Numbered from the stretch's first letter, positions 27,733 through 52,587 are shown. The stretch: DNA of 64,000 nucleotides from Escherichia coli (GCF_016903815.1 NZ_CP069973.1); one strand, 5' to 3'. Notes: a model not told the origin generated them from the letters alone. Program-made: numbers and translations.

Positions 27733-29403
27733 TCATTTTTTCACTCTCACCGGCATCCCATTTGCCACAAAATATCTTGCCGTGCTCCTCGGCAACGCTT
27801 CTTGCCCGCGAATCATATCCGCTATTTTCTCGCCAATCATAATCGTCGTGGCGTTCAAATTGCCGGTGATAATTTGCGGCATAATTGACGCATCCACCAC
27901 GCGCAGGCCTTCCAGCCCGTGTACGCGGCCTTCGCCGTCAACCACTGCCATCTCGTCATAACCCATTTTGCAGGTACCGCACGGGTGGAAGGCGGTTTCG
28001 GCGTGGTTACGCACGAACTCATCGAGCTGCTCATCCGTCTGGCATTCGACACCGGGGCTGATTTCGCGGCCACGATACTGATCCAGCGCCGGTTGATGCA
28101 TGATCTCGCGGGTGATGCGAATTGCGTCGCGGAACTCCTGCCAGTCCTGCTCGTGCGACATGTAGTTAAACAGAATCGCTGGATGCTGGTGCGGGTCGCG
28201 GGATTTAATCCGCACATGCCCACGGCTTGGCGAGCGCATCGATCCGACGTGGCACTGGAAGCCGTGCTCTTTCACTGCGTTCGAGCCGTTATAGTTAATC
28301 GCCACTGGCAGGAAATGGTACTGAATATTCGGCCACGCAAATTCCTCACGGCTGCGAATAAATCCGCCTGCTTCAAAGTGGTTGCTGGCACCAACGCCGG
28401 TGCCGCCAAACAGCCACTCCGCACCGATTTTCGGCTGATTCCACCACTGCAGGGCAGGGTAGAGGGAAACCGGTTCTTTGCACTCATATTGCAGATACAT
28501 CTCCAGGTGATCCTGAAGATTTTCGCCGACGCCGGGTAAATCATGCACCAGCGGAATATCAAACTCCGCCAGCAGTTCAGCGCTACCCACGCCGGAACGT
28601 TGCAGGATCTGCGGTGAGGCAATCGCGCCTGCACATAACAGCACCTCTTTATTCGCCGCCGCGCGGGTCGGAATGGTGCTGTCGCCTTCCAGCCACTCGA
28701 CGCCCACCGCGCGTTTGCCGTCAAAAATGATGTGATCGGTCATGGCGTGAGTACGAATGGTCAGGTTAGGGCGCGATTTGGCCTGATCGAGATAGCCACG
28801 CGCGGTGCTGGCGCGACGGCCATGCGGCGTGACGGTGCGATCCATCGGGCCAAAACCTTCCTGCTGATAGCCGTTGAGATCGTCCGTGCGCGGGTAGCCC
28901 GCCTGCACGCCCGCTTCAATCATCGCTTCAAACAGCGGATTGACGCCGGGTTTGGAGGTGGTGACGCTCACCGGGCCATCACCGCCGTGGTAGTCGTTCT
29001 CGCCCACGTCGCGAGTCTCGGCCTTGCGGTAGTAGGGCAGGCAGTCGAGATAACTCCAGTTCTCCAGGCCAGGTTCTTGCGCCCAGTTGTCGAGATCCAG
29101 CGCGTTGCCACGGATGTAGCACATGCCGTTGATCAGCGACGATCCACCCAGACCTTTACCGCGTCCGCACTCCATGCGGCGGTTATTCATAAACGGTTCA
29201 GGTTCCGTTTCATAGGCCCAGTTGTAGCGTTTACCCTGTAGCGGGAACGCCAGCGCTGCGGGCATCTGGGTGCGGAAGTCAAAGCGATAGTCCGGGCCGC
29301 CCGCTTCAAGCAGCAGCACGGAGGTATTCGGATCTTCAGTCAGACGGGTAGCGAGAACGTTGCCGGCTGAGCCGGCACCAATAATGATGTAGTCAAATTG
29401 CAA
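27733..29403 (-). CDS. betA: Choline dehydrogenase (GMC oxidoreductase)
   Basis: 556-aa product beginning (M)[20 protein letters not shown] from a TTG codon 7 nt after AGGAGG. Confidence 0.9.
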
Positions 29404-29416
29404 ATAAACCTCCTGG

Positions 29417-30889
29417 TTAGAATATGGACTGGAATTTAGCCATCTCAACCTGGATGGACTTCACCTGGGTGTAACTCTGGAGCGTCATCACGCCGTTCTC
29501 GCGACCAATGCCGGAGTGTTTGTAGCCGCCAACGGGCATCTCTGCCGGGGATTCGCCCCAGGTGTTGATCCAGCAAATACCCGCTTCCAGCTGATGAATG
29601 ACGCGATGCGCGCGGTTCAGGTCCGCCGTCACGATGCCCGCCGCCAGGCCGTAGTCGGTATCATTGGCGCGGCGAATCACTTCGTCCTCAGATTCATAAG
29701 TGAGAAGCGACATCACCGGACCGAAGATCTCTTCGCGCACGATGGTCATTTCGTCGCGGCAATCGGTGAACACGGTCGGTGCAACCCATGCGCCGTTATC
29801 GAAGCCATCGCCTTTCAATACATCGCCGCCGCACAGTACGCGCGCGCCTTCCTCTTTGCCTTTGGCGATGTAACGCAGCACGTTATCGCGATGCGGGAAG
29901 CTGACCAGCGGGCCGAAGTTAGTTTGCGGATCGAAAACGTCGCCCGCGCGAATGCGCTCAACGCGCGCCAGAATCTTTTGTTCAAATGCGGCTTTGCATT
30001 TCGCCGGAATAAACACGCGGGTGCCGTTGGTACACACCTGACCGGAGCTGAAGAAGTTCGCCATCATGGCGATATCAGCGGCGAGATCGAGATCCGCATC
30101 GTCGAAAACGATCAGCGGTGATTTACCGCCCAGCTCCATGGTCACTTCTTTCAGGGAGGAAGCCGCCGAGTTAGCCATCACTTTTTTGCCGCTGGCGACA
30201 CCGCCGGTAAATGACACTTTGGCAATGCCCGGATGCTCGGTCAGATACTGCCCGGTTTCCGCACCTACGCCCGGCAGCACGTTAAATACGCCGTCCGGCA
30301 GGCCCGCTTCGCTGTAAATTTCGGCCAGCTTTAACGCGGTAAGCGGGGTGACTTCGCTCGGTTTGAAAATCATCGCGTTGCCTGCCGCCAGCGCCGGTGC
30401 GGATTTCCACAAGGCAATCTGGATCGGGTAGTTCCATGCGCCAATCCCTGCCACTACGCCCAGCGGTTCGCGGCGGGTATAAACAAATGACGTCTCACGC
30501 AATGGGATCTGGCTGCCTTCCAGCGACGGGATCAGCCCGGCGTAGTACTCGAGCACGTCCGCGCCGGTAACGATATCGACGGTTGAGGTTTCCGAATACG
30601 CTTTTCCGGTGTCGAGGGTTTCCAGTTTTGCGAGTTCGTCATTGCGTTCACGCAGAATATCAACGGCCCGACGCAGAATACGCGAGCGCTCCATAGCGGT
30701 CATCGCCGCCCAGATTTTTTGCCCCTGTTGGGCACTCTTCACGGCGCGATCGACATCCTCACGCCCGGCGGCCTGCACGGTCGCCAGCACGTTACCGTTG
30801 GCCGGGTTAATGGTCTCGAAGGTGCGACCGCTGGTGGCGGAGGTATAACCACCATGTATATAAAGCTGCTGTTCTGCCATTCGGGACAT
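29417..30889 (-). CDS. betB: Betaine aldehyde dehydrogenase
   Basis: 490-aa aldehyde dehydrogenase ([15 protein letters not shown]...; EMELGGKSP catalytic region). Confidence 0.92.
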
Positions 30890-30902
30890 CACGTTTCCTC
30901 GG

Positions 30903-31490
30903 TTAATCGGTGGGTAAATGCTGAGTAATAAAGTGACGGGTCAGCGAGTGTGCGAGAGGTTTATCCAGCGGTTTGCCGCTCAGTGCCGCGCGCAGCCATA
31001 ATCCGTCAATCAGCGCGGCAAGGCCGTAGCCCGCTTCCTGTGCCTGTTGGCGCGGTAACTCGCGGTGAAATTCGCTCACCAGATTCGACAACAAGCGGCG
31101 GCTGCTCACCTGCTGCAAACGGTAAAGCATTGGCTGATGCATACTGCTGGCCCAAAACGCCAACCAGGCTTTCATCGCAGCATTACTGACCTGCGTTTCA
31201 TCGAAATTCCCGTCAACAATCGCCTGTAATCGCTGCTCTGCACTGCCCTGCGGAAGTGCATGTAATCGATTCAAAACCGCGTCACGCAGCTGACTGGTGA
31301 TATCGCGCATGGTTGCTTCCAGCAGACCATTTTTGTCCCTGAAATAGTGGCTGATGATCCCCGTAGAAACGCCTGCACGGCGGGCGATCTGCGCGATCGT
31401 TGCATCGTGCATGCCCACTTCATTTATTGCTTCCAGCGTGGCGTCGATCAGTTGTCTGCGCCGGATCGACTGCATCCCCAATTTGGGCAT
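30903..31490 (-). CDS. betI: TetR-family choline-responsive repressor
   Basis: 195-aa product from [14 protein letters not shown]; TetR HTH ([20 protein letters not shown]). Confidence 0.9.
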
Positions 31491-52184: not shown

Positions 52185-52341
52185 CCATCATGTTTGTGTG
52201 GGGTCTTTTCTGTATCTTACGCATCGCACTCAAGCCTGACAGAAAATATGCTGTAAGGCTCATATCAAAAACCGCCATTAGCTCATCAGGAAGAGCAGAC
52301 GACAACCAGGATTGTTGTATGGTACGGGGTTCGAGGCCTCG

Positions 52342-52587
52342 ATGGCGGTCCAACTTTTCATAACTCTTCTGAATCAGCTCCCCTTATTATCATCCCTGCA
52401 AAGTGGAACATTACCATTGTTTGGCTATTCAGGACGGGTCAGAGCAATGAAAAAAGCCCACACAGGGGAGAGTGGGCTGAAATGGGAAGCTAAAGACTCA
52501 AGTAAACTTATCGGAAATAAGGACCACGCATTACGGGGGCTATCATCGCCGATGGTCGGGATTCGGCAAATCAGGTTGATTACGTAG
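52342..52587 (+). CDS. yahM: Small hypothetical protein
   Basis: 81-aa product from MAVQLFITLLNQ within a 91-aa track ORF; symbol by size and synteny. Confidence 0.45.
   Translation: MAVQLFITLLNQLPLLSSLQSGTLPLFGYSGRVRAMKKAHTGESGLKWEAKDSSKLIGNKDHALRGLSSPMVGIRQIRLIT

Follow-up and report, generated by a model that had tools for sequence, protein, structure and literature searches.

At which codon does translation of betA, the last cistron of betI-betB-betA, begin, and does the identity of that codon carry a function of its own? We considered these questions in a 64,000-nucleotide stretch of Escherichia coli DNA (GCF_016903815.1 NZ_CP069973.1; hereafter the window), which matches E. coli chromosomes, for example that of strain E2865, at 100% identity. 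The longest betA open reading frame (ORF) runs over 27733..29448 on the minus strand and would encode 571 aa; it opens at a TTG codon, and the in-frame stop above it is the TGA at 29463..29461. Fifteen codons below the first TTG lies a second, at 29403..29401, followed by CAA TTT GAC TAC ATC ATT ATT GGT GCC GGC (QFDYIII...). UUG is a canonical minor start codon. The first-pass annotation, made from the sequence alone, had taken the second TTG as the betA start and the beginning of the conserved N-terminus, and had judged the short form to be the likelier product than the form with 15 further codons. The longer ORF is indeed present, and annotation, public proteins, orthologues, and substitutions in the region of overlap with betB all favor the short form. 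Sequence comparison thus supports a TTG-initiated, 556-aa BetA, and we put the probability that betA is translated from UUG 29403..29401 (-) as a 556-aa protein at roughly 0.93.

The betB-betA junction and its candidate start codons

The minus strand of the window carries betI, betB, betA, and ykgH in this order, with betT divergent on the plus strand, and RefSeq features from four E. coli genomes, placed on the window, give the same bet operon context (betI-betB-betA and divergent betT). The betB-betA junction segment is present in 5179 of 5426 complete E. coli genomes; the other 247 gave no match to it, and 10 of the matches in the genome collection are plasmid-borne. Read across the junction, the minus strand is TAA CC AGGAGG TTTAT TTG, with AGGAGG beginning 2 nt past the betB stop codon and an intercistronic gap of 13 nt, and the range 29398..29420 spans the Q codon, the TTG, the spacer, AGGAGG, and the betB stop (Table 1). 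The junction between betI and betB (30890..30905, -) is equally short and has the same 13-nt layout, TAA CC GAGGA AACGTG ATG.

Table 1. Features of the betA start region and its neighbors, with positions counted from the first nucleotide of the window
Feature	Position	Strand	Basis
betA CDS, short form, 556 aa plus TGA stop; choline dehydrogenase, GMC flavoprotein	27733..29403	-	RefSeq CDS, TIGR01810, Pfam
betB CDS, betaine-aldehyde dehydrogenase, 490 aa, upstream cistron	29417..30889	-	RefSeq CDS; NCBIfam PRK13252, 917 bits
betB stop codon TAA, 13 nt upstream of betA start	29417..29419	-	sequence and RefSeq
betA Shine-Dalgarno AGGAGG	29409..29414	-	predicted 16S rRNA duplex, -11.5 kcal/mol; GGAGG core in TTG clade
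5-nt spacer TTTAT, ribosome-binding site to start codon	29404..29408	-	sequence
betA initiation codon TTG	29401..29403	-	RefSeq in four E. coli genomes; cross-species codon comparison
Upstream in-frame TTG opening the longest ORF (571 aa); judged a non-start	29446..29448	-	inside betB, spans GTT/GAG codons
Predicted RNA hairpin, betB 3' codons (CC.UCC.GGU...) with betA Shine-Dalgarno; hypothetical	29409..29457	-	RNA folding

The second TTG has a Shine-Dalgarno sequence at a functional distance, although the spacing between AGGAGG and TTG measures 5 nt and not the 7 nt that had been reported. The predicted duplex with the 16S rRNA tail reaches -11.5 kcal/mol at this site and -8.4 kcal/mol at the upstream TTG. 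The latter codon had been described as lacking a ribosome-binding site, which holds only in part: the sequence in front of it is weaker and lies at a long distance, but it does exist, as an AGGTGA 12 nt upstream. Combinations of AGGAGG with A/G/T-TG after 4-9 nt are not enriched in the window, where the two strands together hold 4 and 5.3 are expected; the informative point is that one copy of the motif marks precisely the codon at which homology to the family sets in.

The 15 upstream codons are open because they overlap sequences with other roles. The first 10 coincide with the end of betB, read in another frame, and the remainder with the betB stop codon, AGGAGG, and the spacer. The mechanically derived ORF list also exceeds RefSeq at the other two bet cistrons, by one GTG codon for betB and by six codons for betI.

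Family models place the beginning of conserved sequence directly at the second TTG, as had been claimed. The TIGR01810 betA equivalog scores 1030 bits against a curated cut-off of 732.1, with model positions 1-532 corresponding to residues 4-537 of the short form, while the Pfam domains GMC_oxred_N (PF00732) and GMC_oxred_C (PF05199) cover residues 3-300 and 393-524. The FAD-binding GxGxxG motif is GAGSAG, at residues 9-14. Judged by its membership in the equivalog, the protein would oxidize choline to betaine aldehyde.

The TTG start of betA is already recorded in public annotation, and the finding is in this respect ordinary. In four RefSeq genomes picked to span the identity range (E2865, BW25113, AST85, and an O157:H7 strain), the betA CDS starts at the TTG corresponding to window position 29403 in every case. 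The exact 556-aa protein occurs in at least 1000 contigs of a public collection of about 15 billion proteins, under the name 'MULTISPECIES: choline dehydrogenase [Enterobacteriaceae]', and no 571-aa form was found among these sequences. E. coli K-12 betA (RefSeq, UniRef; 556 aa) shares with the window the position of the start and the 13-nt gap after betB, and the BW25113 junction is identical to that of the window across the 111 nt aligned. The window allele differs from that of K-12 at a few residues, none relevant to the start.

At the other end of the gene, the window encodes the 556-aa and not the 562-aa C-terminal variant of BetA; the protein cluster has many members of either length. 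An A-run before the stop codon (27733..27745, -) is polymorphic in E. coli. With six As, as in the window, E2865, and BW25113, the protein ends in ...KK* at 556 aa, and with seven, as in the O157:H7 record, a frameshift adds MSRDLN* to give 562 aa. AST85 BetA is also 562 aa long, via a different sequence (GAAAAAACTGAATCGC...).

Comparison of the start region across species

We read the homologous codon and the region upstream of it in 80 betA loci obtained from one scan of species-representative genomes. The homologous start codon is TTG in 33 of the 80 and ATG in 19. The TTG loci belong to Pseudocitrobacter, Enterobacter, Huaxiibacter, Lelliottia, Leclercia, the Klebsiella oxytoca group, Raoultella, Citrobacter amalonaticus, and C. 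sedlakii, and the ATG loci to Trabulsiella, Pluralibacter, Cedecea, Pantoea, Kosakonia, Rosenbergiella, Tatumella, and four Pseudomonas. Most Pseudomonas, and Moraxella, have an ATG one or two codons upstream of the homologous codon. An in-frame stop lies 0-8 codons upstream in all but one of the 16 enterobacterial ATG loci, the exception being a metagenome-assembled genome with 22 open codons. Within the TTG group, Klebsiella and Raoultella have a 6-nt spacer (TCATTT), which shifts the reading frame with respect to betB so that no upstream start remains, and three Citrobacter genomes (C. amalonaticus/sedlakii) have TCG in place of the upstream TTG, a change that is synonymous in a betB valine codon. 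With no upstream start in these genomes, the extension is therefore impossible there.

Substitutions in the stretch shared with betB can be read in both frames. In the 25 loci whose frames are arranged as in E. coli, we compared the codons of the 30-nt overlap with those of E. coli. Eight of the 14 variable columns fall at third positions of betB, and thus at second positions in the frame of the putative extension. Synonymous and non-synonymous codon differences number 13 and 21 in the betB frame, and 4 and 33 in the frame of the extension. The extension therefore evolves as betB coding sequence and ribosome-binding site, not as part of BetA.

Two further observations concern the loci themselves. 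The state of the start codon tracks the betA lineage and not the genus label (loci L043, L048, and L051 against L007-L018): 'Enterobacter' sp. Ag1, sp. Cy-643, and E. cancerogenus M004 have the ATG-GAA form, as do Cedecea, Pantoea, and Kosakonia, and the remaining Enterobacter have the TTG-CAA form. Horizontal transfer of the bet cluster might account for this pattern, as might mislabelled genomes. The betB-betA interval of many Pseudomonas loci (L054-L083) contains a G+C-rich inverted repeat, which lies about 15-45 nt in front of the ATG and just before the ribosome-binding site (for example, CCCGGGTTACCCGGG and CCGGATCGCAACCGG). The repeat sequences suggest an intercistronic stem-loop, absent from the 13-nt enterobacterial junction.

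These comparisons bear most directly on the possibility that translation starts inside betB, at the upstream TTG (29448), and yields a 571-aa BetA as product or co-product. That codon opens the ORF and is shared by E. coli, Pseudocitrobacter, Enterobacter, and Lelliottia, and its AGGTGA makes low-level initiation in E. coli conceivable, yet 12 nt is a long spacing for a working ribosome-binding site, and ribosomes elongating betB cover the codon. Its loss in the three Citrobacter and its displacement out of frame in Klebsiella and Raoultella, the stops that close the frame in the ATG lineages, the non-coding-like substitutions of the extension in its own frame, and the absence of the extended sequence from public proteins all weigh against it, and we regard this alternative as very improbable. 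Initiation downstream of the second TTG is more improbable still. The near-cognate ATC and ATT codons (codons 5-7) and the first in-frame ATG (29265, codon 47) are available in frame, but they lack Shine-Dalgarno-like sequences (predicted duplexes of -0.7 to -1.2 kcal/mol), and use of them would truncate or remove the FAD-binding segment that the family models cover and that is invariant across 80 species. Downstream starts were rejected for these two reasons, the missing ribosome-binding site and the loss of the FAD-binding motif.

For the favored start at the second TTG, we suggest that the strong AGGAGG places the 30S subunit at the UUG, which would be read as fMet by the initiator tRNA to give the 556-aa choline dehydrogenase. 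The FAD-binding beta-strand and GxGxxG motif would then start almost at the N-terminus of BetA, and the 15 upstream codons would fall outside the protein.

Conservation of the TTG codon and possible coupling to betB

The 65-nt betB-betA junction is identical in 5097 of 5183 E. coli records. With the start codon replaced by ATG or GTG and the rest of a 42-nt context left unchanged, megablast queries matched none of 20,395 records, and no such variant was seen in about 5180 E. coli genomes; since megablast needs an exact 28-base word, a variant with a second nearby mismatch would escape the search. Synonymous fourfold sites in the 34 sequences of the TTG clade have diverged from E. coli by 24-51%. 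The initial T of the start codon is invariant (34/34), as compared with 8 of 197 fourfold sites (4%); of the 26 fourfold sites with T in E. coli, none is invariant, and only four are never A or G. Since the first T could become A or G without the loss of a canonical start and never does, the alignments suggest a constraint on the TTG state of betA, in what is a test of a single site. The GGAGG core is likewise present in all 34 sequences, with predicted ribosome-binding site duplexes of -11.5 to -12.5 kcal/mol in the TTG clade and -5.2 to -13.7 kcal/mol in the ATG lineages. We also considered a trade-off between the strength of the start codon and that of the ribosome-binding site, and rejected it, given that several ATG lineages are also strong (-13.7 kcal/mol).

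Translational coupling of adjacent cistrons is a general mechanism in bacterial operons. A UUG start, a near-consensus ribosome-binding site 2 nt past the betB stop, and a 13-nt gap together form an arrangement that favors such coupling, and we infer that betA may be coupled to betB, with moderate BetA synthesis. A short gap and a ribosome-binding site directly after the upstream stop are features of translationally coupled cistrons that the betB-betA junction shares; it differs from classic coupled junctions, which overlap as ATGA or TAATG, as the betB and betA cistrons do not. A weak start and a strong ribosome-binding site right behind betB would make BetA synthesis moderate and dependent on betB translation.

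RNA folding predicts a stem in which the ribosome-binding site pairs with upstream coding sequence (29457..29409), with a minimum free energy of -33.5 kcal/mol for a 120-nt segment and a marginal z of -1.87. Coupling may act in part through this hairpin, which would mask the ribosome-binding site until the ribosome finishing betB opens it. Across 18 species, its pairing is kept in 97.8% of cells and there is one compensatory change; covariation is not significant among these species, the observed value being reached in 50 of 500 shuffles. Both arms are otherwise constrained, by betB coding sequence and by the ribosome-binding site. Rfam gave no family at threshold anywhere in the window. Elsewhere in the window, ARAGORN called an 81-nt tRNA-Ser (anticodon gga) at 52272..52352 (+), where Rfam has no tRNA at the gathering threshold and RefSeq has only yahL, yahM, and yahN; the call is probably a false positive.

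Is the TTG, then, a start codon whose identity has no function? The odds seem to us a little short of even that a neutral or slightly deleterious ATG-to-TTG change was fixed in the ancestor of the Escherichia-Enterobacter-Klebsiella-Citrobacter betA and has been tolerated via the strong ribosome-binding site, with no dedicated coupling structure. Sister lineages thrive with ATG at the same codon, and the hairpin does not covary significantly; moreover, UUG is a normal start codon, used by about 3% of E. coli genes, and reporters that carry it reach 10-100% of the AUG level (bioRxiv 10.1101/063800). An accident of this kind fits less well with the invariant T, set against 4% of fourfold sites and against only four of 26 T-sites that are never A or G, with the want of any ATG or GTG variant in the E. 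coli genomes searched, and with ribosome-binding sites whose strength is uniformly high in the TTG clade but varies among the ATG lineages. We think it unlikely, though worth stating, that the UUG is instead a selected tuning of expression, kept through the divergence of the Escherichia-Enterobacter-Klebsiella-Citrobacter betA. In that model, with a strong ribosome-binding site masked by the last betB codons, BetA synthesis would strictly follow that of BetB and stay below it, and betaine aldehyde, a toxic intermediate, would never outrun its dehydrogenase.

Implications for annotation and use of betA

Other E. coli genes resemble betA in joining a minor start codon to a Shine-Dalgarno sequence, with a longer ORF or an alternative start that misleads naive ORF calling. 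A tetracycline ribosome-profiling paper (PMC4909307) puts the UUG starts annotated in K-12 until then at only 81 and describes confirmation of some UUG starts by tetracycline ribosome profiling and lacZ fusions; the UUG start of ftsH is another example. Unlike these genes, betA needs no correction, as public annotation already has the UUG. The text-form supplements of that paper do not mention betA, b0311, or betB. In the literature searched we found no N-terminal peptide or initiation-profiling data for betA. Full-text searches gave nothing relevant on a TTG start in betA or betIBA ('betA' also matches the Greek letter beta), no paper on a BetA N-terminal peptide, and none that joined choline dehydrogenase with translational coupling.

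The main value of the analysis is as an annotation check: a track of longest ORFs makes betA 15 codons too long, reaching into betB, and curated annotation and comparative data concur on the TTG start. Transgenic production of glycine betaine makes wide use of betA. When the gene is cloned or re-coded, the 556-aa form is advisable, and replacement of TTG by ATG may alter the BetA:BetB ratio. More broadly, a weak start conserved across several genera provides one small, well-controlled data point on whether selection maintains non-AUG starts.
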